The position numbers and the translations under genes are program-made. From an uncultured bacterium (GTDB lineage: Bacteria > Armatimonadota > Hebobacteria > CAIYQO01), in assembly GCA_903928345.1 (NCBI GenBank), contig CAIYQO010000315.1, positions 1-18,357 on the forward strand: a DNA stretch of 18,357 bases, in the 5' to 3' direction. The notes below the pieces were generated by a model that saw only the letters and a program-made list of their open reading frames with translations, searched no databases and was not told the DNA's origin. Below, in pieces: positions 1,661 to 18,357 of the stretch. Within the stretch, counting starts at the first letter, position 1. The number at the start of each line of letters is the position of its first letter.

Positions 1661-1670
1661 CCTGAAGGTT

Positions 1671-1691
1671 TGCAGGGACTGTCCCGTGACG
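1671..1691. repeat. repeat family A copy (TGCAGGGACTGTCCCGTGACG), palindromic core GGGACTGTCCC
   Basis: It starts about 10 nt after the stop of the DUF1559 gene. The same 21-24 nt motif recurs at 1757-1777, inverted at 1791-1812, and again at 18246-18267 and 18334-18357. Confidence 0.7.
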
Positions 1692-1756
1692 TTCCGTGTG
1701 CGCGTTGCGCGACCGTCTGCCTGCTAGCCTGGAAGCAATAACCTGGTATCGGAAGA

Positions 1757-1812
1757 CTACAGGGGCTGTCCCGTGGCGCATTGATAACCTACGCCACGGG
1801 ACAGTCCCTGCA
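1757..1812. repeat. repeat family A hairpin: two inverted family-A copies (19-bp arms, 1 mismatch) around a 13-nt loop
   Basis: ACAGGGGCTGTCCCGTGGCG (1758-1777), loop CATTGATAACCTA, then CGCCACGGGACAGTCCCTGCAG (1791-1812). It lies between the convergent genes at 575..1660 (+) and 1816..2553 (-) and could act as a bidirectional terminator, though no U-tract follows. Confidence 0.7.
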
Positions 1813-1815
1813 GAG

Positions 1816-2553
1816 CTACGCCGGCCGTTCGTCCAGCAAAATCTCCCCCTCGATGCCCACGATGACGCGGTAGAGGGGGATTTCCACCCCGGCGCTTTGT
1901 TGGGCCAGCGTCACCAGGCGTTCCAGCCCGCGGCAGCAAGGCACCTGCATCATCACGATGGTGATGCTGCGCAGGCCGGCCTCGACGATCATGGTCGCCA
2001 GCTTCTCCACGTACCCCTGCGGATCGTCGAGTTTCGGGCAGGCGATGGCCAGTGCGTGGCCGGTGAGGAACTGTCGGTGGAAGTCGCCATGGGCGAAGGC
2101 CGCGCAATCCGCCGCCAGCAGCAGGTCGGCGTCGCGGAAATACGGCGCCGTGGGCGCGACCAGGTGCAGTTGCACCGGCCATTGCGCCAGCGCGCTGGCC
2201 GCGGGGGCCGTCGCCGTCGTGGCGGCAGGGGCTTTGGGCGCGAAGGCGCGCATCTGCGACCCCGGGCACCCGGCGTGGTGCGCGTGCGCGGGGGACGGCG
2301 CCGGGCGGCCCAGCGTCTGCAAGTGCGTCGCCACCGCGGCTTCGTCGAAGGCGGGGGCGTCACGCTCGATGATGGTGATGGCCCCTTGCGGGCAGTCCGC
2401 CAGGCAGGCGCCCAGCCCGTCGCAATAGTCGTCCTTCACCAGCCGCGCCTTGCCGTCGATCAGTTGAATAGCCCCCTCCGCGCAGGAACCGACGCACAGC
2501 CCGCACCCGTTGCACAAGGCCGCCTCGATCTGCACGATCTTGCGTGTCGCCAT
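1816..2553 (-). CDS. 4Fe-4S dicluster ferredoxin-domain protein with Cys-containing C-terminal domain
   Basis: There are two CxxCxxCxxxCP motifs (CNGCGLCVGSCAEGAI and CDGLGACLADCPQGAI). The C-terminal domain carries further conserved Cys (ADCAAF, IACPKLDDP, PCCRG). The start was moved to the internal ATG (MATRKIV...) because GGAGGGGG lies 6-8 nt upstream; the ORF-track start at 2586 has no SD. Confidence 0.8.
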   Translation of the reverse strand: MATRKIVQIEAALCNGCGLCVGSCAEGAIQLIDGKARLVKDDYCDGLGACLADCPQGAITIIERDAPAFDEAAVATHLQTLGRPAPSPAHAHHAGCPGSQMRAFAPKAPAATTATAPAASALAQWPVQLHLVAPTAPYFRDADLLLAADCAAFAHGDFHRQFLTGHALAIACPKLDDPQGYVEKLATMIVEAGLRSITIVMMQVPCCRGLERLVTLAQQSAGVEIPLYRVIVGIEGEILLDERPA

Positions 2554-3354: not shown

Positions 3355-4317
3355 ATGGACCGTGACAATGTAGAAACCGGAGCGGTGGACGCTCTCCACC
3401 ATGAGCCGGTCATGCTCGCCGAAGTGCTGGCGTACCTGGATCCCCAACCGGGGAAGACCATCGTAGACGCCACGCTGGGCGGCGGGGGCCATGCGCACGC
3501 CATTTGCGAGCGCCTCGGCCCCACGGGCCGCCTGATCGGCCTCGAGCAGGACGCCGACGCGCTGGCGCGGGCGCGGCGCCGGCTACACGGCTTTCCGGTC
3601 ACCTACGTGCACGAGAACTTTCGGCACCTTGACAACATCATATCGCATCTTGACCTCGGCTCCGTTGACGGGTATTTCTTCGACCTGGGGGTTTCTTCCT
3701 TCCAGCTCGACACCCCGGAGCGCGGATTCAGCTTTCGCTTCGACGCCCCGCTGGATATGCGCATGGACACCCGGATGCCCGACACCGCCGAGGACTTGAT
3801 TAACCGGATGACGGAGAGTGAGCTTATGCACATTTTTCTCGAATCCGGTTATGGACGGTGGGCGCGACGCCTGGCCAAAGCTGTTACCACGTCTCGGCAA
3901 CTATCACCGATCACCACGACCGCCACATTCGCCGCTTTAATCGCCGCAACGATTCCCGGACACCATCACAGCAAGATTCACCCTGCGACCAAGGCCTTCC
4001 AGGCCTTAAGGATCGCTGTCAATGATGAGATCGCCGCCCTGCATGCCGCATTGATCGCCGCCACCCATCACAGCAACGTCGCCGCACGCATTGTCGTCCT
4101 GTCCTACCACAGCTTGGAGGATGGAGAAACGAAACGGACGTTCCAATACCTCGCCGGCCGGCGTCCGCCCCCGTCCAATCCCTATGACCCGGAGCCTCCT
4201 GCCTTACCGCAGTTGCTCTCCGTGCTCACGAAAAAACCGTTGATCCCGTCGCCGGAAGAGATCCGGCGCAATCCGCGCAGTCGCAGCGCCAAGCTGCGCG
4301 CCGCGGAACGACTGTAG
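3355..4317 (+). CDS. rsmH: 16S rRNA (cytosine1402-N4)-methyltransferase RsmH (MraW)
   Basis: Motifs HEPVMLAEVL, DATLGGGGHA, DLGVSSFQLDTPERGFSF, DMRMD, SYHSLEDG and NPRSRSAKLR are all present. The position after mraZ is conserved. Confidence 0.9.
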   Translation: MDRDNVETGAVDALHHEPVMLAEVLAYLDPQPGKTIVDATLGGGGHAHAICERLGPTGRLIGLEQDADALARARRRLHGFPVTYVHENFRHLDNIISHLDLGSVDGYFFDLGVSSFQLDTPERGFSFRFDAPLDMRMDTRMPDTAEDLINRMTESELMHIFLESGYGRWARRLAKAVTTSRQLSPITTTATFAALIAATIPGHHHSKIHPATKAFQALRIAVNDEIAALHAALIAATHHSNVAARIVVLSYHSLEDGETKRTFQYLAGRRPPPSNPYDPEPPALPQLLSVLTKKPLIPSPEEIRRNPRSRSAKLRAAERL

Positions 4318-8119: not shown

Positions 8120-9271
8120 ATGCTGTCCGGCCGGAGTTTTCGCCTGGGGCGCATCGGCGGCATCACGATCAACATCGACTACACCTGGTTCATCATCTTT
8201 GCACTGTTTGTCTTCCTGCTTGCCACCGCCTACTTCCCCGCGGTGCTGGCGCATGTGCCGCACCCCGCGTCCCCGTTGATGGTGTGGGGCACGGCGGTGC
8301 TCACCAGCGTGCTCTTTTTCGGCTCTGTGCTCGCGCACGAATTGTCCCACTCCTTCGTGGCGCGGCGGCACGGCATCCCCATCAACAGCATCACCCTGTT
8401 TATCTTCGGCGGGGTGGCGCAGATGGAGGACGAGCCGCAGACGCCGGGCGACGAATTCAAGATGGCGATCGCCGGGCCGCTGGCGAGCATTGCCATCGGG
8501 GTGCTCTTCATCATGCTCCTCGCCGGTGCGCACAACGTGCTGCCGCCGCTGGCCAACGCGGCGCTGTGGTATCTGGGCGCCATCAACATCATCCTCGCCG
8601 TCTTCAACCTGTTGCCTGGCTTCCCGCTGGACGGCGGGCGCGTCTTCCGCTCCCTGGTGTGGGCCATCACGCATGACCTGCGCCGCGCCACGCAGATCGC
8701 CTCCATCACCGGGCAGGGGTTCGGGTGGATCTTCATCGTCCTCGGCCTTGCCAGCCTGGTGGTGCCCGTGCTGGGCAAATACATCACGGTGTGGATGGCG
8801 CTGATCGGTTGGTTTTTGGTAAGCGCGGCGCGCAGCAGCTACCAGCAAGTAGTAATGCGCGATACCCTGAGCCACGTGCCGGTGCGCGACGTGATGCACC
8901 CGACCGTGGAGGCCGTGCCCGCCACGCTGTCGGTGCAGCAACTGGTGACGGACTACTTTCTGCGCGGCAGCTCCAGCGCGTTGCCGGTGGAGCTGAACGG
9001 CACGGTGACCGGCGTGGTAGGGGTGGAGGACGTGCAGGCGCTGCCGCGTGACGCGTGGTCGGGCACGCTGGTGAGCGAAATCGCCCGCCCACTCACCCAG
9101 GAGCAAACGCTGCACCCCGACGACGACGCCTGGGCCGCCACCAGCCGCATGGCGCACGGCAACCGCGACCGCGTGCTCATCACCGAAGGCGACCACGTGG
9201 AAGGCATCGTCACCCGCGGCAGCATCCTGCGCTGGTTGCAGACGCATAAGCCGGGGTTCGCGACGGGGTGA
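8120..9271 (+). CDS. site-2 protease family (peptidase M50) membrane metalloprotease with C-terminal CBS domain pair
   Basis: HExxH appears as AHELSHS within a TM region. The second zinc-ligand/LDG motif reads NLLPGFPLDGGRV. There are multiple TM helices. The C-terminal about 130 aa resemble a CBS pair (VRDVMHPTVEAV...; GVVGVEDV...; VEGIVTRGSILRWL). GGAAGGGGG lies 6 nt before the ATG. Confidence 0.85.
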   Translation: MLSGRSFRLGRIGGITINIDYTWFIIFALFVFLLATAYFPAVLAHVPHPASPLMVWGTAVLTSVLFFGSVLAHELSHSFVARRHGIPINSITLFIFGGVAQMEDEPQTPGDEFKMAIAGPLASIAIGVLFIMLLAGAHNVLPPLANAALWYLGAINIILAVFNLLPGFPLDGGRVFRSLVWAITHDLRRATQIASITGQGFGWIFIVLGLASLVVPVLGKYITVWMALIGWFLVSAARSSYQQVVMRDTLSHVPVRDVMHPTVEAVPATLSVQQLVTDYFLRGSSSALPVELNGTVTGVVGVEDVQALPRDAWSGTLVSEIARPLTQEQTLHPDDDAWAATSRMAHGNRDRVLITEGDHVEGIVTRGSILRWLQTHKPGFATG

Positions 9272-9300
9272 GCTTTCCGCCTCTCGCGTGACGTTTATCG

Positions 9301-9355
9301 GTCAGCGTGCCCTCACCCCCCGCCCCCTCTCCCAAAGGGATGAGGGCACGCTGAC
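9301..9355 (+). terminator. 15-bp perfect-stem hairpin with 25-nt C-rich loop, 30 nt after the M50 stop (possible terminator; no U-tract)
   Basis: GTCAGCGTGCCCTCA (9301-9315) pairs with TGAGGGCACGCTGAC (9341-9355). The loop CCCCCCGCCCCCTCTCCCAAAGGGA contains a TCCC/GGGA mini-stem. Confidence 0.4.
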
Positions 9356-9416
9356 GGACAGGCGTCCCAAACAAAACAGCAAAGGCGGTAGTCCCTCTCG
9401 TATAGCAAACATATGC

Positions 9417-9445
9417 TTGACATTGCCCTCCTTTTCTGCTATACT
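9417..9445 (+). promoter_or_regulatory. consensus-like sigma70 promoter (TTGACA-17-TATACT) upstream of the terminase fragment
   Basis: TTGACA at 9417-9422, a 17-nt spacer, then TATACT at 9440-9445. The ORF-track start at 9413 overlaps this promoter, so the real start is probably the ATG at 9515, preceded by GGAGGGGAA. Confidence 0.55.
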
Positions 9446-9514
9446 CCAGCCCTTCCAGGCATGAGGCGGAGGGGCGCCAGTGCCGCGGGGTTCACTTTCG
9501 GGGGGAGGGGAACG

Positions 9515-10249
9515 ATGCGGCAAGAGACGGCGACGCGCCCGTTGACCGATGTGGCGCGGGAGGAGCTGGGGGCGTTCGGCACGCAGGTCTTCGACCTGTG
9601 GCCGGCGGCGCACCACGAGGTGTGGGTGGAGCTGCTAAGCGACCCGCGCCTCAACCGGCTGCTCATCATCGCGCCGCCGGGCCATGCCAAATCCACCTGG
9701 TGCACCATCATCTACCCCGCGTGGCTGGTGGGGCGGCAACCCTCCGTCAATATCCTCCTCGTCTCCGCCACCGCGGCGCAGGCCCGGCTCTTCAGCGCCG
9801 GGGTGCGCGAAGCGGTGGTGGGCAGCCCCGCCTTCGCCGACATCTTCCCGGGTCTCGCGCCCGACCGCAAACGCGGCTGGGGGCAGAACGCGTGGTTCGT
9901 GCAGCGCCCGCCGGATAGCAACAAGGACGCCACTGTGGCCGCCTGCGGGGTAGGCGGGCCGCTCATCGGGCGCCGCGCCGACGTGATCATCGTCGACGAC
10001 CCCTGCGACCAGGCCAACACCACCACCGTAGCGCGCCGCGACAAGCTGTGGCAGTGGTTCCGCCAGACGCTGCTCACCCGTCTGCGCCCCAATGGCCGCG
10101 TGATCGTGGTGATGACCCGCTGGCACGAAGACGACCTGGCCGCCCGCCTGATCCGCAGCGGCGAATTCGCCGTCTGCCACCTGCGCGCCCTCAGCGACGG
10201 CCCCGACGTGCGCGCGACGCTCACCGTGCCGGGGGCGGTGCTGGGGTAG
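9515..10249 (+). pseudogene. phage terminase large subunit, N-terminal ATPase fragment (gene interrupted after the ATPase domain)
   Basis: Walker-A-like LIIAPPGHAKST, Walker B VIIVDDP and the terminase coupling motif TRWHEDDLAARL are present. The frame ends at the TAG at 10247-10249. The rest of the protein continues 128 nt downstream in another frame. Confidence 0.7.
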
Positions 10250-10289
10250 CGGATTGCCACCCCTACCTGTTATCGCCCCCCACCTCCGA

Positions 10290-10324
10290 CCCCTCCCCCG
10301 CAACGTCCTGTGGCGGGGGAGGGG
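10290..10324. repeat. hairpin family B copy 1 (CCCCTCCCCCGC - 11 nt - GCGGGGGAGGGG) inside the terminase-disrupting insert
   Basis: 12-bp perfect stem. The family recurs at 10360-10394 and 11265-11309. Confidence 0.65.
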
Positions 10325-10359
10325 AGAACAGAAATGCGAATAGTTTTCGATAATCATCT

Positions 10360-10394
10360 CCCTTCCCCCGTCACACGATGTTACGGGGGAAGGG
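10360..10394. repeat. hairpin family B copy 2 (CCCTTCCCCCGT - 11 nt - ACGGGGGAAGGG)
   Basis: 12-bp stem with an 11-nt loop. The loop contains the first ATG of the nuclease fragment. Confidence 0.65.
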
Positions 10395-11136
10395 CCGGGG
10401 ATGGGGGGCCGTCTTTCCGAAAGGGTACCAAATGCCGGACATCCTCATCCATCGCCGCGGCCCCGCGTTGTGGCCGGAGGTGTTTCCGCTCAAGCTGCTG
10501 CAGACGTTGAAGCGCGAGTTGGGGTCGCTGCTGTTTGAGACGGTGTACCAGGGGGAGCCGTCGCCGGCGCAAGGCACGGTATTTCAGCGCGGCTGGCTGG
10601 CGAGCTACACGGAGACACCGCGCGCGCTGGAGATCGGCCAAGCGTGGGATACCGCGTTGAAAGGCGGGCAGGAACACGACTACTCCTGCTGCGTGACGGG
10701 CGGGCGCGACGCCGACGGGCGGGTGTTTATCCTGGACGTGTGGCGCGGGCAGGTGGAGGCGCCGGCGCTGGGCCGGCAGGTGCTCATGCTCGCGGAACGG
10801 CACCAGCCGCGCTGGGTGGTGATGGAAGACGCCGGGGCGGGGGCCATGCTGCTGCAACAGATTCGCGGCCGCCGCCTGCCGATGATCCCCGTGACGCCGG
10901 TGAAGGACAAGCGCTTCCGCGCCGGAGTGGTGGCGCCGCTGGTGGAGCGCGGCGACGTGCGCCTGCCCGTCTACGCCCCGTGGCTGGAGGATTTCATGGG
11001 CGAATTACTCGGCTTCCCCGCGGGGCGGCACGACGACCAGGTGGATGCCTTCGTGCACCTGCTCACCCGCTTCGCCGCCCACTCCCCGCTACCCATGACC
11101 GACTGGGGACGCATCCAGCGGCCGGAGGGGTGGTAG
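10378..11136 (+). pseudogene. phage terminase large subunit, C-terminal nuclease fragment
   Basis: The linker/nuclease-domain motifs LWPEVFPLKLLQTLKRELGSLLFETVYQGEP and GRHDDQVDAFVHL (terminase RNaseH-like nuclease) are present. The frame is open from 10354 and differs from that of the ATPase fragment. There is no SD in front and no other phage structural genes in the window. Confidence 0.7.
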
Positions 11137-11187
11137 ATGGGGAATGCAAAGTGAAAAATGGAGAATGGAGAATGCAGAATGGGGGAC
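11118..11187 (+). repeat. about 70-bp direct repeat, copy 1 (GCGGCCGGAGGGGTGGTAGATGGGGAATGCAAAGTGAAAAATGGAGAATGGAGAATGCAGAATGGGGGAC); overlaps terminase last codons + stop; contains tandem NAGAATG heptamers
   Basis: It is about 97% identical to 13462-13532 (1 mismatch, 1 indel). Weaker similarity extends about 25 nt further upstream: the terminase ends ...DWGRIQRPEGW*, and the region before copy 2 reads ...DVRGAIRRPEGW* in frame. Confidence 0.8.
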
Positions 11188-11264
11188 TTACCCCGGCCTC
11201 AGAGGCGTTAGCTACTGTCACGGCTGGTCCGTTCTCCAACCCGACGATAAATCGTCAGTTGGGA

Positions 11265-11309
11265 CCCCCCCTCCCCCGCTAAGACTTGAAGACTTGCGGG
11301 GGAAGGGGG
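11265..11309. terminator. hairpin family B copy 3 (CCCCCCTCCCCCGC - 16 nt - GCGGGGGAAGGGGGG); likely bidirectional terminator between terminase fragment (+) and flotillin (-)
   Basis: 14-bp GC stem followed by CTTTTCC on the plus strand. It lies 8 nt from the flotillin stop. The loop contains AGACTTGAAGACTT. A further small palindrome CCAACCCGACGATAAATCGTCAGTTGG lies at about 11236-11263. Confidence 0.45.
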
Positions 11310-11316
11310 GCTTTTC

Positions 11317-13341
11317 CTACATCCGCGGTGCCGACGGGCCGCCGGACTCATCGCGGGGGTTTTGCGCCGGTTCCGTGCCTTCTACCGTCGTCGTTTCTAC
11401 CACGGACGTCGCTGCTGTACCTATGGGCGTCGTGCCCAGGTATTTCATCAGGGAGGCGGCCAGGCCATCGAGCGATCCACCCCCGCCGGTGACCAGGATA
11501 TCCGGCACGAACTTCATGTTCCCTTCCGCCAGCGCGGTGACGGCGTTCACCAGTGCGGTGGGCGCCTGTCCTAACGCCTGCACTTGCGCCTGGTAGGCTT
11601 TCGCGCGGGCCAATCCCACGGCTTCCACCTCGGCACCCTTGGCGGCGCCGGTTTCACGGATATAGGTGGCTTCGCCGTCCGCTTTGGCTTTCTGCGCGTT
11701 GGCGTTGTTCGTCTCGATATCCACGTTCACCCGCGACTGCGCCAGTTTGGCCTGCATATCCGCGGTACCCTTTGCCTGTTCCATGGAGATGCGCTGCTCT
11801 TCCGCGGCACGCTGTTTTTCGTAGGTCTCGATCTCCTGGAAGGCGATTTCGCGCTGGGTCAGCACGCGCACCATGTCATCGGGGAGGATCACGTCCTGGA
11901 TGTAGACGCCCTTCGTCTCCACCTGGTATTCGGCCAGTTGCGAGGCGATATGCGCGAAGGCTTCCGCCTGCACTTCCTGGCGCGTCTCGATGAACCTGAT
12001 CGCCGGCATGCTCTGCAATTTATCGCGGAAATGGTTGCCCACCGCGGCCTGCAACACTTCGTTGACCAGATTGTACATGGTGCCCACGCTGGAGATCACG
12101 CGCGGGGCCTTGGTGTCGGGCACGTGAATCTGCACCTGCAGGTCGAACTTGAAGACGAAGCCTTCCCGGCTTTTCGCTTCGATGGGCTGCAGGCGGCTGT
12201 CCAGGTTGTGCGCCTGGGAGACCACGTCCGCCCAGTTGATGGTGAGGATGGCCGTGGGCACGATTTCCGCCTGGTAGACGCGCGGATTGATGGGGTATTT
12301 CCCGGTGCGCAACGGCTCCTGCCAGATGCCGCGATGGCCCGGGCGCACCAGACTGCCATATTTGAAATCCACCCCGGAGGTGTCTTTGGTCACCAGGCCG
12401 ACATAGGCCTTGATCACCGCGACTTCGCCCTGCTGCACCACCAGCATCGGCACCATCTCCACGGACACCAGGAAGGGGTTCAGCGCGTAGGCGCCATAGA
12501 GCAGCGGGTCGTGCTGCAAGCCGATTTTGCCGCCATTGGTGAGGAAGGCCTGGAAATCCTGGTAGTTGTTGTGAAGGTTATTCATGTTACCGAGCAGCCG
12601 CTCGATAACTTCCGCGTCGTTCGCTTTGTCATTCTCCATCTTATCGATGTCATCGAAGCCACCCAGGCGGCAGGCGATGTCGCCCGCCGGCAAGGGATCG
12701 CCTTCATAGGCCGTGACGATGCCGATGGCATCCAGCATATTGCCGCCGGGTCCGGTCGGCTGCGGTTGAATGCGCACCAGTTCCAACTGTTCAGGACGCA
12801 AGCCGAAGGATTCCGGCACCAGGCGACGCTGGGCATCCACCTGCAATTGCGACGACGAGATGGGCACGCCATACACCTGCCGTTTGGTGATGACCAGAAA
12901 GCCCACCGGATGAATCGGCATCAAGGTCCCCGGCGGGAAGACGGGACGCTGGACGCCCTTTTGCCCCCCACGCTGAATGAAGGCGCGCAGGTCGCTGAAG
13001 TTGGCGAACTCGTTTTTATAGATGGCGGATTTCGCGCCGATGGGCAAAGATGACCCCACCTGCGCGATCACCACGCCTATCTCGTTGGCCGGCACCTGCA
13101 CCCAGGGGAATTTCTCGATCTTGTAGAGAATGGCCAACTTGAAGCGCAATCCGGGCATGAGGAGATCGGCCTGATAGCCGGCTTCGCCGTGAAAGGCAAT
13201 GGGGTTGTCTTCCATCAGCCGTTTGAAGCTGAAGCGTTTCGTCACCAGGCCGACCTGGGTCGGGCCGATCGAACGGAACGAGAAGAGGAGAATGAGGGCA
13301 ACCGCGATCCCTGCCGCCCACAACAATGTTACAAGATCCAT
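11317..13341 (-). CDS. flotillin-like SPFH/band-7 domain protein (YqiK/FloT-type) with long C-terminal coiled coil
   Basis: It has an N-terminal TM (LLWAAGIAVALILLF), an SPFH-like core, and an extended Ala/Gln/Glu-rich coiled-coil region (EIETYEKQRAAEEQRISMEQAKGTADMQAKLAQSR...AKAYQAQVQALGQA) typical of bacterial flotillins. AAGGAGG lies 7 nt upstream of the ATG. Confidence 0.8.
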   Translation of the reverse strand: MDLVTLLWAAGIAVALILLFSFRSIGPTQVGLVTKRFSFKRLMEDNPIAFHGEAGYQADLLMPGLRFKLAILYKIEKFPWVQVPANEIGVVIAQVGSSLPIGAKSAIYKNEFANFSDLRAFIQRGGQKGVQRPVFPPGTLMPIHPVGFLVITKRQVYGVPISSSQLQVDAQRRLVPESFGLRPEQLELVRIQPQPTGPGGNMLDAIGIVTAYEGDPLPAGDIACRLGGFDDIDKMENDKANDAEVIERLLGNMNNLHNNYQDFQAFLTNGGKIGLQHDPLLYGAYALNPFLVSVEMVPMLVVQQGEVAVIKAYVGLVTKDTSGVDFKYGSLVRPGHRGIWQEPLRTGKYPINPRVYQAEIVPTAILTINWADVVSQAHNLDSRLQPIEAKSREGFVFKFDLQVQIHVPDTKAPRVISSVGTMYNLVNEVLQAAVGNHFRDKLQSMPAIRFIETRQEVQAEAFAHIASQLAEYQVETKGVYIQDVILPDDMVRVLTQREIAFQEIETYEKQRAAEEQRISMEQAKGTADMQAKLAQSRVNVDIETNNANAQKAKADGEATYIRETGAAKGAEVEAVGLARAKAYQAQVQALGQAPTALVNAVTALAEGNMKFVPDILVTGGGGSLDGLAASLMKYLGTTPIGTAATSVVETTTVEGTEPAQNPRDESGGPSAPRM

Positions 13342-13461
13342 CGTACGCCTCCTTATACCTTGCGTGTAACACGTTTAACTAACTTCGACGCCTCCGGCGG
13401 GGGTTCCTGCTTCCAGTATGCCGACATCCAGTCGGCGCGTGGATGTCAGGGGGGCCATTCG

Positions 13462-13532
13462 GCGGCCGGAGGGGTGGTAGGTGGGGAATGCAAAGTGAAA
13501 AATGGAGAATGGAGAATGCAGAATGGGGGGAC
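13462..13532 (+). repeat. about 70-bp direct repeat, copy 2 (same orientation as 11118-11187)
   Basis: See copy 1. It lies in the spacer between the two minus-strand genes, upstream of the flotillin start. Confidence 0.8.
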
Positions 13533-13550
13533 AACCGCACCCCGTTCGAC

Positions 13551-13578
13551 ATTTTCCATTCTCCATTGTGCATTGCCG
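13551..13578. repeat. inverted partial copy of the NAGAATG heptamer array (CATTTTCCATTCTCCATTGTGCATTGCC)
   Basis: Its reverse complement GGCAATGCACAATGGAGAATGGAAAATG matches AATGCA.A.TG.A.AATGGA.AATG in 13485-13525. With the 25-nt spacer (containing GGGGTGCGGTTGTCCCC) it can form a long imperfect stem-loop just 3' of the 13589..14425 gene on the minus-strand transcript. Confidence 0.55.
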
Positions 13579-13588
13579 CAACGCGACC

Positions 13589-14425
13589 CTATTTTTTCAC
13601 CAGCGTCGACTTGCTGCGGGTGTATTGCAGGTCGACGGTGGCTTTGCGGTGTTCCAGTTGGGCGAGGCTGAGTTCGATGATCTCCTCGGCCTCGTAGGTG
13701 CTCATGGTGCCGACGGTGACCATGTCGCAGTCGCGCAGGGTGTTCCACACGAAGGCCATGCCGGTGGGGGGCAGCAGACGGCCCGCGGCGAGGGGCTTGA
13801 TGGTCATCACGGGGCATTTGGCGTTCTGGATGGTTTGCCCAATCCAGTCCGTCTCCACCTGGCACAGGAAGCCGGCGGCGTTGTACGGGGTGATGTACGT
13901 TGCCACGTCGGCGTCGCAATTGTCGGCGCAGAGGATCGCCTCCGGGTTGTGCGAACTCAGGCCGGGCACCAGCCCCATGGCGCGCACGATGCGCAGCAGC
14001 TCCGCCAAATCCGGCGCTAGGCAGGTATTCACGCGGTCGAGCCGTGGGTCGGTGGTGCACTGGTGCGGAAAACAGAAGGTGGCGCCGAAGTCGATGCACT
14101 CCTGCACGGTGCGTTTCCAACCGTCGTAGCCGCCTGACATCTCCCAGTGCGGCGTGCACACCCAGAGCATCCGCTCGCCGGTGCGCTGCTCCACCTCGCG
14201 CAGCGCGTCGGCGGTGAAGACGCTCTGCATGCTCATGAAGGCGTTGCAGCCGGCGCGCGCGAAGACTTCGATCACGTCGGCCATCTTCTTCGGCGTGTCG
14301 AACATCTCCTTGATCAGCCGATCCTTGGCGCGACTGGTGTGGGAGAAGCCCAGGAACCAGTTGCTGCCGCAGATCAGCCGCGGCATGGAGACCCCACCGA
14401 CATCGGTGCGTGGAAACCCACTCAT
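13589..14425 (-). CDS. hypothetical Cys-rich soluble protein (13 Cys; no family recognised)
   Basis: The long ORF shows coding-like composition. The start was chosen at the internal ATG (MSGFPRT...), which has GAGAAGGGGGC immediately upstream. Candidate motifs are PRLICGSNWFLGFSH, FCFPHQCTTD and ILCADNCDAD. I could not assign it to a known family from memory. Confidence 0.55.
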   Translation of the reverse strand: MSGFPRTDVGGVSMPRLICGSNWFLGFSHTSRAKDRLIKEMFDTPKKMADVIEVFARAGCNAFMSMQSVFTADALREVEQRTGERMLWVCTPHWEMSGGYDGWKRTVQECIDFGATFCFPHQCTTDPRLDRVNTCLAPDLAELLRIVRAMGLVPGLSSHNPEAILCADNCDADVATYITPYNAAGFLCQVETDWIGQTIQNAKCPVMTIKPLAAGRLLPPTGMAFVWNTLRDCDMVTVGTMSTYEAEEIIELSLAQLEHRKATVDLQYTRSKSTLVKK

Positions 14426-14458
14426 AATGCCCCCTTCTCGAGACAGGACTGACACCCG

Positions 14459-14709: not shown

Positions 14710-14756
14710 AACCATGTCAGCGGGAATTAGGACCCCGCTGAAGGGAGGTGTCCCTG

Positions 14757-15152
14757 ATGCGGCACACAGTACTGGTGATAGACGACCAATGGTCCATGCA
14801 AGAGCTGGCTCGCATTGTCCTGCAGACCGCGGGGTTCCGCGTGCTGTTGGCGGGCGACGGCGCCACCGGTCTCAGCCTCGCGCGTACGGAACACCCGGAT
14901 GCCATTCTCCTCGATCTGCGCATGCCCGGCCTCGACGGCCTGGACGTGTTGCGCGTGTTGCGCCAACAGGCGGGCACGGCGGAGATTCCGGTGCTGCTCA
15001 TCACGCCCGATGCCGGCGAAGAGGCCCAGGCGGCCGAACGCCGCGCCGGCACGGCGGAGATCCTGCGCAAGCCCTTCCACCCCCCCGAGCTGCTGCGCGG
15101 CGTGCAAAACCTGCTCGCCCGCCCCACGCTGCCGGTAGCGATGACGGGGTGA
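14757..15152 (+). CDS. stand-alone CheY-like response regulator receiver domain protein
   Basis: REC residues are present: VLVIDD (acidic pocket), LLDLRMPGLDG (phospho-acceptor Asp), LLIT (Thr) and LRKPF (Lys). There is no output domain. AAGGGAGG lies 8 nt upstream of the ATG at 14757. Confidence 0.85.
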   Translation: MRHTVLVIDDQWSMQELARIVLQTAGFRVLLAGDGATGLSLARTEHPDAILLDLRMPGLDGLDVLRVLRQQAGTAEIPVLLITPDAGEEAQAAERRAGTAEILRKPFHPPELLRGVQNLLARPTLPVAMTG

Positions 15153-15170
15153 CCGGTCGCCGACATGCAC

Positions 15171-15325
15171 TTTGGGAGGGCGAGTGTACCCGCGAGCCGC
15201 GCGCGTATGCTCCGCGTTGAAAGCAGAAATGGTCTGTACGTGTGACCGCTCACACGTACAGACCATTCGCGTGTTTCTCTGCGATTGCCTCGCACGCGGC
15301 TCGCGGGTACGCTCGCCCTCCCAAA
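15171..15325. mobile_element. MITE-like / structured element: 31-bp terminal inverted repeats (1 mismatch) enclosing a perfect 14-bp-stem hairpin
   Basis: The left arm TTTGGGAGGGCGAGTGTACCCGCGAGCCGCG (15171-15201) pairs with the right arm CGCGGCTCGCGGGTACGCTCGCCCTCCCAAA (15295-15325). The inner hairpin is GTCTGTACGTGTGA ccgc TCACACGTACAGAC (15232-15263). It starts 19 nt after the response-regulator stop. No target-site duplication is obvious. Confidence 0.4.
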
Positions 15326-15417
15326 GGTTACGAATCCCCTTCCCCGATCACCCCACAAGGTATCCGCCCCGCGACGCCGAAATAAAGGGTAGTTTACCCG
15401 TAAAGGAGCCTTCCCTG

Positions 15418-18240
15418 ATGGTGCGTCGCGTGTGTGTGGTCGTCTTGTTGCTGCTCGCCGGTGTGGCGGTATGGGCGCAGGACGCCAAGATGTTCGAGTA
15501 TCCCGAGCAGTTGGCGCCGTTAAAACTGGACACGGCGGGATCGAAAAAGTGGTCGGCCACGGTGACCAAGCTGGCGCCGGACTTCGGCATCGCCTACCCC
15601 GGCGACGTAGTGACGCTGGAAATTTCACTCAAGAACACCGACACCGTGCCGTTGGCGGTGACGCCGACCGTCGACGTGACGCGCATCAACATGCAGTTCG
15701 AGGGGTACGACTTCACCCGCGGCGACCCGATGATCGGCGGCACGAAGATCAGCATCACCCCGGCGACGCCGGGGATGCGCACGCCGTTGGCCGCGGTGAC
15801 GGTGGCCCCGAACGCGACGGTGAAGCTCCTCTGGTCGCTGCCCAAAGCCTCCGACTGCGCGGCCTATGGCGCCTACGCGGTGATCGTGGACCTGGGGGAG
15901 AAGGGGCGGCAGGCGGCGGGCACCTTTGCACGCGTGCACCCGCCCAACCCGGCGGCGGGCGACGGCAAATCCTCCCCGCTGCTCTACTCCATGTTCTGGC
16001 AGTGGCCCATCGACCAGCAGTGCGCGCTGCTCGCCCGCCTCGGGTACAAGTGGGTACGCACCGACGGCAGCCCCAACTGGGCTTCCGCCAGCCAGCAGGA
16101 TGTCTACGCGCCCTTCGACTGGACGCGTGAGGACGCCTGGATCAAACCCTTCCGCGACAACCACCTGTGGATCCTCAGCAACATGTACGGCTCGCCCGGG
16201 CAGACGGTCACGCAGCCCAACCAGAAGGCCTACAACGTGATCCACGAGGAGAAATACGACGAGCGCATGGGCGAATTCGTGGAAGGTGCCGTGAAGCGCT
16301 ACTGCGGCGAAGACGGCAACGGCCCGCTGCAGACCATCGACTACTACAACGAACCGTGGGAAGGCGGCGGCATCAGCGGGTGGAAGAGCGACTCCGTACG
16401 CTACCGCAAGCTGTACGAAACGATCTACGAGCGTGCCCACAAGGCGAGCAAGTTCATCAAGGTGGGCGGCGCCTCGAGCATCATGAACACGGTCGACAAG
16501 TTCTTCATCATCCCCGACTGGCGCAAGCAGTACGGGATGGACGTGCTCACCGACCACTACGTGCAGCCCTACTGCTGCTTCGGCCCGCGCGTAGCCGACA
16601 CGCTGAAACTGCCTTCCATCGAGACGGAAACGTGGATCGGCAACACGCCGGACAGCCTGATCGCCACCGCCACGCACTTCACCGCGGCGGGACAGCAGCA
16701 GGTGAATCCCAACCACCCGTCGCAGCTCATCTGGGGCGGCAACGGCTCCGGGCCGATGTGCACCCCGGCGGTGGTGGCGGCGAACTATTTCCTCTACTTC
16801 ATCGCCGGCAAACATTTCTCGCGCGTGGTCTTCCTCGACCACCTGCCGTGGCTGTATGAGTGGACGGACGGCAAAACGACGAACTACATCCTGGCCGGCG
16901 ACCGCCACCTGCTCAACGACCAGGCGGTGACGATGTACGACCAGATCCGCGCCGACGGCACGCTGGAGCTGGACTCCCTCAAGGGCAAGCTCAAGGCCAC
17001 CGACGCCTTCGGCAACCTCTACCCGCTGAAGAAGGGCAAATACCTGCTGCCCTGCTCCTACACCTCCGTCTACCTGGACGCGCCCGGCCTCGACCCGGCG
17101 AAGGTCATCGACGCGGTAAGCAAGGCGAAAATGACCGGCGTGAAGCCGGTGGAGATCTTCGCCGACGACTTCACCGCGCCGATCAACAAGGCGAAGACGG
17201 TGGACGTCACCCTGCACAACGTGCTCAACCGCGCGGTCAGCGGCACGCTCACCTTCACCCCGCCGGCGAGTATCAAGCTGACGACGGCGATGCTGGCGGT
17301 GACGCTGGCGGCGGGTGAGGAGAAGCGCTTCAGCCTGCCCATCGCCGGCGCGACGGTGAACCCCGCCAACGCGTACGAATTTACCTACGCCTTCAAAGGC
17401 GACGCGGGCAGCGCCACGCTCAAGGAAGTGCTGCACGTCAACACCCTCACCAAGGGCACGCCGACCATTGACGGCGACCTGAGCGACTGGAACGACGCCG
17501 TGCCGGTGATCACCTTCGGGCAGGACCTGAAGCGTGACCTCGCCGAACGCGCCTGGCGCCCGTGGGAACAGGAGAAGGACGTCACCAAGGGCCTCACCGA
17601 GGTGCGCTTGAAGTGGGACGCCACCAACCTGTACATCGCCGTGCGCGACCGCAACAAGGACTGGTCGACCAAACCGCGCCTCTCCACCCGCAAGGACGAC
17701 GACTACTTCGGCACCGGCGACATGGCGCATACCTACGTGAAAGACATGTGGGACGCGCTACCCTTTACCGGCTCCTGCGTGCAGGTCGGCATCGGCCTGG
17801 GGCTGCATAAGGCGGGCTTCGGCCCGGCGACCACCGCCCCCGCGCGCATGCTGGCCGACGACGACACCGACTACGAATACGACTTCTGGGGCGCGCCCGA
17901 CGGCGGGCTGGAGATCTGGCGCAGCAGCAAGCCGGGCACGGAACTCTTCAACTTCCTGCCGCGCTGCATGCCCGTCGGGTACGACGGCGTGCCCAAGGGC
18001 GCCAAAGGCGTGGTGAAGCGCGTCGGCAACGACACGGTCTACGAGGTGGCCATCCCGCTGGCCGACATGCCCGAGCTGCACCCCGCCGCCGGTGGCACCA
18101 TCCACCTCACCTTCGCCCTGCCCGGCTCCGGCGTGCAATTCGGCGCGGGCCGCAGCCGCACCCGCAGCAACGGCCTCACCCTCAAACCCACCTGGCAGCC
18201 CACGCCCTCGAACGACATTGCGTGGGGGTTTGTGGAATAG
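15418..18240 (+). CDS. secreted multidomain glycoside-hydrolase-like protein (signal peptide; Ig/CARDB-like beta-sandwich; GH5-like TIM barrel with NEP motif; second CARDB-like domain; CBM9-like C-terminal domain)
   Basis: The start was chosen at the ATG at 15418 (MVRRVCVVVLLLLAGVAVWAQDA, a signal peptide) with AAAGGAGC 8 nt upstream; the ORF-track start at 15172 lies inside the inverted-repeat element. The hydrolase-like core reads KWVRTDGSPNW...IDYYNEPWEGG, where NEP is the acid/base motif of GH5-type clan GH-A enzymes. The CBM9-like signature is GTPTIDGDLSDWNDAVPV...LYIAVRDRNKDW. Confidence 0.8.
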   Translation: MVRRVCVVVLLLLAGVAVWAQDAKMFEYPEQLAPLKLDTAGSKKWSATVTKLAPDFGIAYPGDVVTLEISLKNTDTVPLAVTPTVDVTRINMQFEGYDFTRGDPMIGGTKISITPATPGMRTPLAAVTVAPNATVKLLWSLPKASDCAAYGAYAVIVDLGEKGRQAAGTFARVHPPNPAAGDGKSSPLLYSMFWQWPIDQQCALLARLGYKWVRTDGSPNWASASQQDVYAPFDWTREDAWIKPFRDNHLWILSNMYGSPGQTVTQPNQKAYNVIHEEKYDERMGEFVEGAVKRYCGEDGNGPLQTIDYYNEPWEGGGISGWKSDSVRYRKLYETIYERAHKASKFIKVGGASSIMNTVDKFFIIPDWRKQYGMDVLTDHYVQPYCCFGPRVADTLKLPSIETETWIGNTPDSLIATATHFTAAGQQQVNPNHPSQLIWGGNGSGPMCTPAVVAANYFLYFIAGKHFSRVVFLDHLPWLYEWTDGKTTNYILAGDRHLLNDQAVTMYDQIRADGTLELDSLKGKLKATDAFGNLYPLKKGKYLLPCSYTSVYLDAPGLDPAKVIDAVSKAKMTGVKPVEIFADDFTAPINKAKTVDVTLHNVLNRAVSGTLTFTPPASIKLTTAMLAVTLAAGEEKRFSLPIAGATVNPANAYEFTYAFKGDAGSATLKEVLHVNTLTKGTPTIDGDLSDWNDAVPVITFGQDLKRDLAERAWRPWEQEKDVTKGLTEVRLKWDATNLYIAVRDRNKDWSTKPRLSTRKDDDYFGTGDMAHTYVKDMWDALPFTGSCVQVGIGLGLHKAGFGPATTAPARMLADDDTDYEYDFWGAPDGGLEIWRSSKPGTELFNFLPRCMPVGYDGVPKGAKGVVKRVGNDTVYEVAIPLADMPELHPAAGGTIHLTFALPGSGVQFGAGRSRTRSNGLTLKPTWQPTPSNDIAWGFVE

Positions 18241-18245
18241 AAAAC

Positions 18246-18267
18246 CTGTAGGGACTGTCCCGTAACG
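18246..18267. repeat. repeat family A copy (CTGTAGGGACTGTCCCGTAACG), 6 nt after the stop of the hydrolase gene
   Basis: Same motif as 1671-1691. Confidence 0.7.
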
Positions 18268-18333
18268 CCTCGGGCGAGGTGTTATGCTAATCGCACTGCA
18301 CCCGTCTGGGACGCGTGCATACCAACCGACATC

Positions 18334-18357
18334 CTGCAGGGGCTGTCCCGTGGCGGA
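18334..18357. repeat. repeat family A copy (CTGCAGGGGCTGTCCCGTGGCGGA), truncated by the window end
   Basis: It matches 1758-1777 (the left arm of the 1757-1812 hairpin). It lies 66 nt after the previous copy, the same spacing as at 1671/1757. Confidence 0.7.

Follow-up and report, generated by a model that had tools for sequence, protein, structure and literature searches.

This contribution describes a solitary, two-part gene for the large subunit of a phage terminase (TerL) in an 18.4-kb stretch of bacterial chromosome (65% GC), which represents one entire contig, CAIYQO010000315.1, and is called the window in the following. As far as anatomy and selection are concerned, we assign a probability of roughly 80% to the reading that the locus is a self-contained and selected transcription unit which specifies TerL as two separate polypeptides, an ATPase chain (TerL-N) and a chain of linker helices plus nuclease (TerL-C). 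A first-pass annotation, made from the letters of the window, had taken the gene for a terminase split by a hairpin-rich insert and had offered two interpretations, a remnant of a prophage or gene transfer agent (GTA) and a domesticated module. The insert did not cause the split, since four relatives are split at the same loop without it and purifying selection has acted after the insertion. Of the two interpretations domestication fits much better; the remnant is contradicted by dN/dS values of 0.12–0.24 and by the split that exists without the insert. The module is not a dead remnant but a selected two-cistron TerL module.

Both open reading frames (ORFs) encode recognisable terminase domains with all catalytic motifs intact. 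TerL-N carries a Walker A motif (PPGHAKST), a Walker B motif (ADVIIVDD) and the sequence TRWHEDDL, all invariant across the clade described below and in intact homologs. It matches the PHROG family phrog_38 (1.7e-56), the N-only family phrog_4758 (1e-37) and, among PDB entries, T7 gp19 (3.6e-11); the matches to NCBIfam termin_lrg_T7 (9e-21) and to Pfam Terminase_6N (19.1 bits, cut-off 22) stay under the cut-offs of these models. The open nuclease frame spans 10378–11136, includes the motifs LWPE...YQGEP and HDDQVDA, and is recognised by Pfam Terminase_6C (2.4e-13; 50.8 bits, cut-off 22.6), TIGR01630 (81 bits, cut-off 41.7) and the C-only family phrog_5573 (5.5e-46). Its acidic residues are conserved (the D of QAWDTA, the E/D of MEDAG and the D of HDDQVDA). 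The ATPase fragment at 9515–10249 and the nuclease fragment in another frame had both been recognised in the first-pass annotation, and the profile matches confirm them; the proposed beginning of the nuclease at 10378, with a gap of about 130 nucleotides (nt), has to be corrected. Alignment of the relatives places the start of TerL-C at ATG 10432 (MPDILIHRRG..), a position common to all of them, and the intercistronic spacer therefore measures 182 nt.

The split is shared by the whole clade to which the window gene belongs. A search with the joined halves returned intact terminases of 450–490 amino acids (aa) at no more than 50% identity and a single match at 70% that covers half of the query; the contig of this match (L001; loci are numbered with L) carries two ORFs with a stop/start overlap, ATGCTGA, and no insert. 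Scans of genomes, metagenomes and a protein collection gathered the clade at 64–87% identity, with 15 N-only protein clusters in this range, and found it in Armatimonadota genomes. All 11 members with both halves visible (the window, L001, L004, L005 (identical to L033/L034), L006, L007, L035, L057 (identical to L058), L059, L060 and L067) encode no single-polypeptide TerL; the frames of their two ORFs differ, and a stop codon separates them. The N ORF ends shortly past ..ALS(D/E)G.EV.A.LT.., and the C ORF begins at a separate ATG that closely precedes ..I(P)LH(H/R)RGPALWPE. Like the junction of L001, three further junctions are free of an insert, and they show an ATGA overlap (L004, L005 and L057), the classic arrangement for translational coupling. 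Spacers at the other junctions measure 89 nt in L035, 111 in L060, 167 in L067, 182 in the window, 282 in L007, 296 in L059, 298 in L006 and at least 536 in L008; wherever the C ORF is visible they end in a Shine-Dalgarno (SD) sequence and ATG, and the SD is clear (AGGAGG) in the relatives with spacers. Most homologs whose identity does not exceed 59% consist of a single ORF. One of these, the intact protein P0001 (47–56% identical; 50% to the joined halves), lies inside a prophage with portal and capsid genes, and in a neighbour-joining tree the split solitary genes form one clade that is sister to intact single-ORF TerLs including the group of P0001. Judged from these alignments, the two-cistron break is ancestral to the clade, and the insert did not split the gene because members without it are split as well.

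The place of the break in the protein was derived from an AlphaFold model of P0001 (mean predicted local distance difference test score, pLDDT, 94), which matches the terminases of PhiV-1, D6E, T4, HK97 and Sf6 and whose nuclease domain matches those of G20c, P22 and P74-26. Aligned on P0001, the break falls after the last strand of the ATPase core (residues 225–228) and before two linker helices (246–264), which stay with the nuclease chain; according to the model this is a surface loop. TerLs of the clade have extra residues at this domain boundary, where the break lies, and L011 has this stretch as uninterrupted in-frame sequence (..EVFADVVW.., 29 aa, ..RIFIHDRGPALWPE). The same loop is broken in the TerL of two phage contigs, L052 and L062, which carry genes for RecT, ParB, portal, Mu F and major capsid proteins (break motif ..ALSD..V.AD.. 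/ ..LHE.GPALWP; 36–40% identity to the window module); the halves are separated by several small basic ORFs in L062 and by one or more of this kind in L052. Since PHROGs in addition includes the N-only and C-only terminase families named above, we conclude that real phages use a two-chain TerL. The gaps of L062 (4889–5794) and L052 (10838–10951) encode very basic ORFs of 36–51 aa, one of them DUF7218, and in the nuclease half of L052 no start codon precedes the conserved region. A 109-aa ORF between the L062 halves was suspected by eye to be an HNH homing endonuclease, for which Pfam gave no confirmation.

Purifying selection acts on both cistrons in situ and has continued since the insertion. 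The closest relative, L067, also carries the insert and is 85–90% identical at the aa level and 81% identical in nucleotides over 9402–11136; this pair gives dN/dS values of 0.24 for TerL-N and 0.12 for TerL-C. For the syntenic pair L004 and L005 the values are 0.145 (N) and 0.18 (C) at a dS of 0.33–0.39, compared with 0.27, 0.22 and 0.16 for the neighbouring lpxC, fabZ and lpxA, and the module is here as strongly constrained as these genes. More distant pairs yield about 0.3–0.5 with dS near saturation. No extra stop or frameshift was detected in approximately 1.4 kb across 11 lineages with up to 35% protein divergence. A dead prophage or GTA remnant, in which a small non-autonomous element inactivated the terminase and left two decaying pseudogene halves, would agree with the differing frames, the in-frame stop and the inserted palindrome between the halves and with the lack of other phage genes nearby. 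However, relatives without the insert are split in the same way, the frames of the 11 lineages are otherwise undisturbed, selection continued after the insertion, and the promoter, operator, SD and start positions are conserved along with the catalytic motifs; decay of this kind is thus very unlikely.

Six independent metagenome assemblies (L055, L056 and L063–L066) are 99.8–100% identical to the window through the junction, and the split is therefore not an assembly error. The intact single ORF which, according to the first-pass annotation, resequencing might have recovered was not found; the independent assemblies give the same split. The only indels among the assemblies of the window population are an in-frame 3-nt insertion in an ORF and a 1-nt deletion in the spacer. 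In the variants seen in L056, L063 and L064, the former is an ATC inserted at 9986 in the region of the Walker B strand (one assembly) and the latter falls at 10320 in hairpin 1 of the spacer (two assemblies). Errors are common in GC-rich homopolymers and hairpins, and several of the assemblies are interrupted at palindromes; on these grounds the gene could be an ordinary single-ORF terminase with an indel from sequencing or assembly. Nevertheless, contigs from different samples and assemblers agree across the junction, 182 nt of extra sequence is not of indel size, and relatives from unrelated datasets share the architecture, so that the probability of such an artefact is practically negligible. 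Several short-read assemblies begin inside a palindrome after the M50 gene (9290–9366; starts 9295–9324), and the other ends of the same assemblies lie inside the spacer palindrome or at its right border (10319/10411–10413); either these elements are repeated in the genome or the assembly graph is interrupted by the hairpins. For L055, the divergent tail (3706–3930) was rejected as a variant of the locus, as this contig is identical to the window until 11851 and then continues into the sequence of an ABC-type ATPase, a chimeric join.

The spacer of the window is largely occupied by a 135-nt imperfect palindrome, and the two hairpin copies and the AT-rich patch that had been noticed at first sight were located precisely (Table 1); the hairpins are nearly identical and form the arms of this single palindrome. 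The palindrome has terminal inverted repeats, as does a miniature inverted-repeat transposable element (MITE), and consists of paired GC-rich inverted units in an intercistronic position in the manner of repetitive extragenic palindromic (REP) sequences and bacterial interspersed mosaic elements (BIMEs). The earlier proposal of an inserted MITE-like element rather than a point frameshift is upheld in the form of an inserted, non-coding palindromic repeat-like element. No target-site duplication is visible in its flanks (..TGTTATC / CGTCTTT..), and neither a REP-associated tyrosine transposase (RAYT) nor any other transposase is encoded within the 18.4-kb window. The 211-nt stretch 10240–10450, which holds the palindrome, folds with −118.6 kcal/mol (z −7.8; other strand z −9.2); a strand-specific RNA structure was considered and rejected as both strands fold equally well. 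Rfam searches of the window, the spacer and the phage gap at gathering score and at E up to 1 returned only generic (microRNA-)hairpin models, far below threshold.

A homologous, rearranged palindrome occupies the same junction in L067 and partly in L006, and no other clade locus shares the insert. Since L067 moreover has the TerL-N tail of the window, TLTVPGAVLG*, the insertion predates the divergence of the two, whose palindromes align with rearrangements by indels. Junctions of other lineages (L007, with z −5.5, L059 and L008) hold different structured or repetitive DNA, and the GC content of the spacer tracks the host, not the module. Related hairpins occur at five sites of L006, and units similar to those of the palindrome lie behind genes both there and in the window; related hairpins of the poly-pyrimidine/poly-purine type are found at other intergenic sites of L006, some of them with the 3′ flank GGGCCGGGGATG.GGG. 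Read most simply, REP/BIME- or MITE-like repeats of the host can insert harmlessly at the junction and nowhere else in the module; the palindrome is secondary, tolerated and diverging. As to the individual spacers, L008 contains at 10740–11259 a tandem array whose 116-nt unit includes a 51-nt hairpin and is present at least 4.4 times; the array extends up to the contig end before any nuclease cistron, and the spacer of L059 (10715–11010) combines four copies of AATTAGGA with a long C-rich/G-rich palindrome that is similar in style to that of the window and different in sequence.

The junction also bears on the idea that one polypeptide is restored by recoding, be it a frameshift, a translational bypass as in T4 gene 60 or the splicing of an intron. 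The last sense codon of TerL-N is GGG, followed by UAG within a stem-loop (10240–10267), and a GGG in the frame of TerL-C is present at 10423–10425, an arrangement that recalls take-off and landing codons. However, at 65% GC the codon GGG is common, a bypass would have to span 179 nt, far above known bypasses, and the overlap-type relatives lack a slippery heptamer. Spacers vary in length (89 to at least 536 nt), sequence and frame relation, whereas all C ORFs start with an ATG of their own at a fixed position, and no self-splicing intron or known structured RNA in the gap was matched by Rfam at gathering score. We consider recoding highly improbable and assume two separate chains.

Upstream of TerL-N the window has the TTGACA-17-TATACT promoter and the good SD that had been predicted in the first-pass annotation. 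The promoter matches the consensus in 11 of 12 positions and has in addition a TG extension, where a shuffled sequence yields 0.2 such sites; the −35 hexamer, a spacer of 17–18 nt and the extended −10 element (TGnTAnnnT) are kept in every clade member with visible upstream sequence, and the purine-rich leaders are conserved among the relatives as well. An operator-like palindrome with the consensus CAAAC-N4-GTTTG accompanies this promoter in 10 of 11 clade loci (at most one arm mismatch), with two matches elsewhere in 156 kb of clade loci; perfect matches occur at the module promoter only (56 loci compared). It overlaps the −35 hexamer in the window, L007, L008, L038, L059 and L060 and lies inside the promoter spacer in L001, L004, L005 and L057. 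The AAC-N4-GTT core resembles the LexA box of the Gram-positive type; a literature search for a LexA motif of Armatimonadota found nothing relevant. The sole other near-match in the window, AAAACTCGTGTTTG at 2718–2731, is located 114 nt upstream of mraZ and may be due to chance (0.39 expected).

On the downstream side, a third copy of the hairpin follows the stop codon of TerL-C, succeeded by CTTTTCC, and from its sequence is likely the terminator of the module; a simple terminator scan gave it no score because its loop exceeds 8 nt. Relatives have a GC-rich hairpin 5–130 nt after the stop, too. The 3′ untranslated stretch of the window (11137–11185) resembles the 3′ flank of L057. It is part of an 81-nt direct repeat (93% identical; 11105–11185 and 13449–13529) that brackets the flotillin-like gene. 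Copy 1 comprises the last 9–10 codons of the nuclease and 49 nt of its 3′ flank; copy 2 encodes an allele-like GAIRRPEGW*, and it alone runs on into a complete hairpin (13496–13572), right after the stop of the gene at 13589–14455. This bracketing suggests that a 2.26-kb flotillin segment was inserted beside an older terminase 3′ end.

The unit so defined recurs as a delimited module in many chromosomal contexts. Relatives resemble one another from about 20 nt ahead of the promoter to a short distance past the stop codon, and between distant clade loci spacers and flanks share no nucleotide similarity beyond short hairpin motifs. Each of the nine contexts has its own set of flanking genes, which serve housekeeping functions or have no assigned function and are never of phage type: dcw genes, an M50 protease and a flotillin in the window, ribD in L001, lpxC-fabZ-lpxA in L004/L005, trpD and glycosyltransferases in L006, DUF1559 pilin-like genes in L007, VWA in L008, phosphoglucomutase and an AMP-binding enzyme in L057, aroB, aroC, TrkA and RsmB in L059, and mnmA and padR in L060. 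Even copies that are 86–87% identical (L007, L008 and L059) occupy different places. The GC content of the module is 68–72% everywhere and always above that of the flanks, in L007 and L008 by 11–16 points. No integrase, tRNA genes, flanking direct repeats or target-site duplications were found around the module (repeats and tRNA checked in five loci). DUF1559 proteins with a prepilin-type N-terminal methylation motif are encoded at 575–1660 of the window and at 270–1811 and 3853–4998 of L007; they are paralogs of 42–45% identity, in L007 with one on each side of the module, and their recurrence probably reflects an abundant family in these genomes.

Among the proteins of the window none matches a Pfam, PHROG or NCBIfam profile of portal, capsid or tail proteins or of the small terminase subunit (TerS), and the terminase is solitary there, with the M50 (plus CBS) protease and the Band_7/flotillin gene as neighbours, just as the first reading of the window had stated. 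In the nine contexts, including contigs of 55–60 kb, portal, capsid, tail and TerS genes are absent within 10 kb on either side. These data are relevant to a competing view of the role, which leaves the anatomy untouched: the module could be the packaging enzyme of a dispersed element (GTA-like, a satellite or a prophage lacking TerL) with capsid and portal genes elsewhere. In favour of this view, TerL has no established activity besides capsid packaging, the C-terminal region of the module is conserved (..RP.GW*), the closest intact relatives sit in prophages of similar organisms and the GC content of the module exceeds that of its flanks everywhere. The structural and TerS genes are, however, missing from all nine neighbourhoods, and the module has its own promoter and operator and is not part of a late operon; we therefore regard a dispersed packaging system as rather doubtful.

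Table 1. Features of the two-cistron terminase module and of its surroundings in the window.
Feature	Position	Strand	Description
Operator-like palindrome	9406-9419	+	CAAACATATGCTTG; consensus CAAAC-N4-GTTTG; overlaps the -35 hexamer
Sigma-70 type promoter	9417-9445	+	-35 TTGACA 9417-9422; 17-nt spacer; TG 9437-9438; -10 TATACT 9440-9445
5′ leader	9446-9514	+	SD run GGGGGGAGGGG 9500-9510; GGAGG ends 6 nt before ATG
TerL-N cistron	9515-10249	+	terminase ATPase core, 244 aa; ATG 9515, stop TAG 10247-10249
Small stem-loop	10240-10267	+	GGGGU..ACCCC; encloses the TerL-N stop codon
Imperfect palindrome, REP/BIME- or MITE-like	10275-10409		135 nt; two hairpins, AT-rich loop, outer arms GCCCCCCACCTCCGA / CCGGGGATGGGGGGC
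Hairpin 1	10290-10324		CCCCTCCCCCGC..GCGGGGGAGGGG; 35-nt unit
AT-rich loop	10325-10359		35-nt linker, 31% GC
Hairpin 2	10360-10394		CCCTTCCCCCGT..ACGGGGGAAGGG; 35-nt unit, inverted to hairpin 1
Weak SD	10420-10425	+	AAAGGG; 6 nt before the TerL-C start
TerL-C cistron	10432-11136	+	linker helices and RNase H-like nuclease, 234 aa; begins MPDILIHRRGPALWPE, ends RPEGW*
3′ untranslated stretch	11137-11185	+	ATGGGGAATGCAAAG...GAATGCAGAATGGGGG; within 81-nt repeat R1 (11105-11185)
Third hairpin copy	11268-11307	+	CCCCTCCCCCG..CGGGGGAAGGG; likely terminator
mraZ, rsmH, ftsL-like gene, class B penicillin-binding protein			dcw genes, in window
M50+CBS protease	8120-9271		neighbour of the terminase ORFs
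Band_7/flotillin-like gene	11317-13341	-	neighbour of the terminase ORFs
288-aa ORF	13589-14455	-	
Response-regulator receiver gene	14748-15152		
1022-aa ORF			in window

Other repeats of the window lie apart from the module. A MITE-like palindrome of 157 nt (15170–15326), with 36-nt arms that are 94% complementary and an inner hairpin of 40 nt, is situated just after the receiver gene, and a second repeat family, CTGCAGGGACTGTCCCGTGGCG, recurs in direct as well as inverted orientation at the two ends of the window (1666–1817 and 18233–18356). An exact look-up of the flotillin-like protein matched no record.

From the order of the elements we propose the following model of the unit. It starts with the operator-like palindrome and the strong extended −10 promoter, followed by the leader, the ATPase cistron, the spacer, the linker-plus-nuclease cistron and the terminator-like hairpin. 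Already in the ancestor shared with L067, a REP/BIME-like palindromic repeat landed exactly between the cistrons; it replaced the last few codons of TerL-N and left TerL-C its own start and a weak SD. The two chains may reassemble non-covalently via their junction tails (EV.A.LT.. and ..I.LH.RG) to an ATP-driven DNA translocase-endonuclease. A dimeric repressor could bind to CAAAC-N4-GTTTG, and the palindrome would at most tune the relative expression of the two cistrons or the stability of their mRNA.

Several points weigh against the proposed selected two-chain unit. The case is built on sequences and a predicted structure. The contexts were surveyed on contigs, and partner genes may be located elsewhere. 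Pairwise dN/dS values of distant members could partly reflect earlier evolution in phages, and the evidence for selection in the chromosome therefore comes from the pairs L004/L005 and window/L067. The SD ahead of ATG 10432 is weak (AAAGGG), and the very stable 135-nt hairpin could reduce downstream translation of the mRNA or cause its cleavage, so that this particular copy might under-produce the nuclease. The neighbour-joining tree carries no support values. Finally, PADLOC found no defence-system model that matches either cistron or the neighbours, which leaves the role to deduction.

What the module does can thus be proposed only tentatively. We weakly favour an action on phage packaging, either by interference with related phages or by use of their capsids. 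Similarly tentative is the idea that Armatimonadota have exapted a viral packaging motor as a capsid-independent, repressor-controlled, two-subunit DNA translocase-nuclease on a stand-alone cassette that moves between genomes. If the latter applies, roles in anti-phage packaging interference or in stress-induced DNA processing are conceivable, and the module would represent a so far undescribed type of domesticated phage gene or of minimal mobile module; literature searches for solitary, domesticated or split terminases found nothing comparable. Prophages are routinely called by means of TerL, which counts as a hallmark of tailed phages, yet a clade of TerL genes lives alone in chromosomes: either bacteria reuse the packaging motor or a very small mobile module has been built from it. 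In prophage annotation such loci are probably mis-scored as remnants or pseudogenes. A natural two-chain TerL should be useful for studying the communication between ATPase and nuclease, and it is relevant to the search for new phage-derived host functions. As the module is small and well delimited, it is directly testable by expression and pull-down.

In comparison with known systems, the module resembles the T7-like/Terminase_6 TerLs (T7 gp19, PhiV-1 and D6E) in its ATPase with Walker A and B and the TRW coupling motif and in its RNase H-like nuclease with the acidic residues of WDTA, EDAG and HDDQVDA. It differs from them by its two cistrons, the lack of adjacent genes for TerS, portal and capsid, a sigma-70 promoter of its own together with the operator-like palindrome, and the extra loop at the domain boundary. 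The TerLs of the gene transfer agent RcGTA and of capsid-forming phage-inducible chromosomal islands (cf-PICIs) are likewise phage-derived and kept by selection in a bacterial chromosome, but these lie inside head gene clusters whereas the TerL of the window stands alone. The intercistronic element can be compared with the REP/BIME elements of enterobacteria and with other intercistronic palindromic repeats such as ERIC and Correia-like MITEs; it shares with them a non-coding, imperfect palindrome of two inverted units between cistrons of one operon and the occurrence of similar hairpins at other intergenic sites of the same or a related genome, but it has neither a target-site duplication nor a transposase terminal-repeat signature, and the window contains no RAYT or transposase. 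Split phage TerLs (phrog_4758 and phrog_5573; L052 and L062) also have separate ORFs for ATPase and nuclease, in L052 and L062 with the same break loop; in contrast to the window module, the latter two sit in complete head-morphogenesis modules (portal, Mu F and major capsid) and have ORFs between the halves. The NrdA gene of phage Aeh1 is split by the homing endonuclease gene mobE, and its two chains were shown biochemically to be functional (PMC3045599). As in the module, the gene of an enzyme is divided into two cistrons, and the new tails at the break serve assembly in NrdA. Whereas mobE is still present in Aeh1, the window module has no endonuclease gene, and both the cause of its split and the reassembly of its chains are presumed. 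By analogy, the Aeh1 NrdA split is the closest functional precedent for a working gene in pieces.

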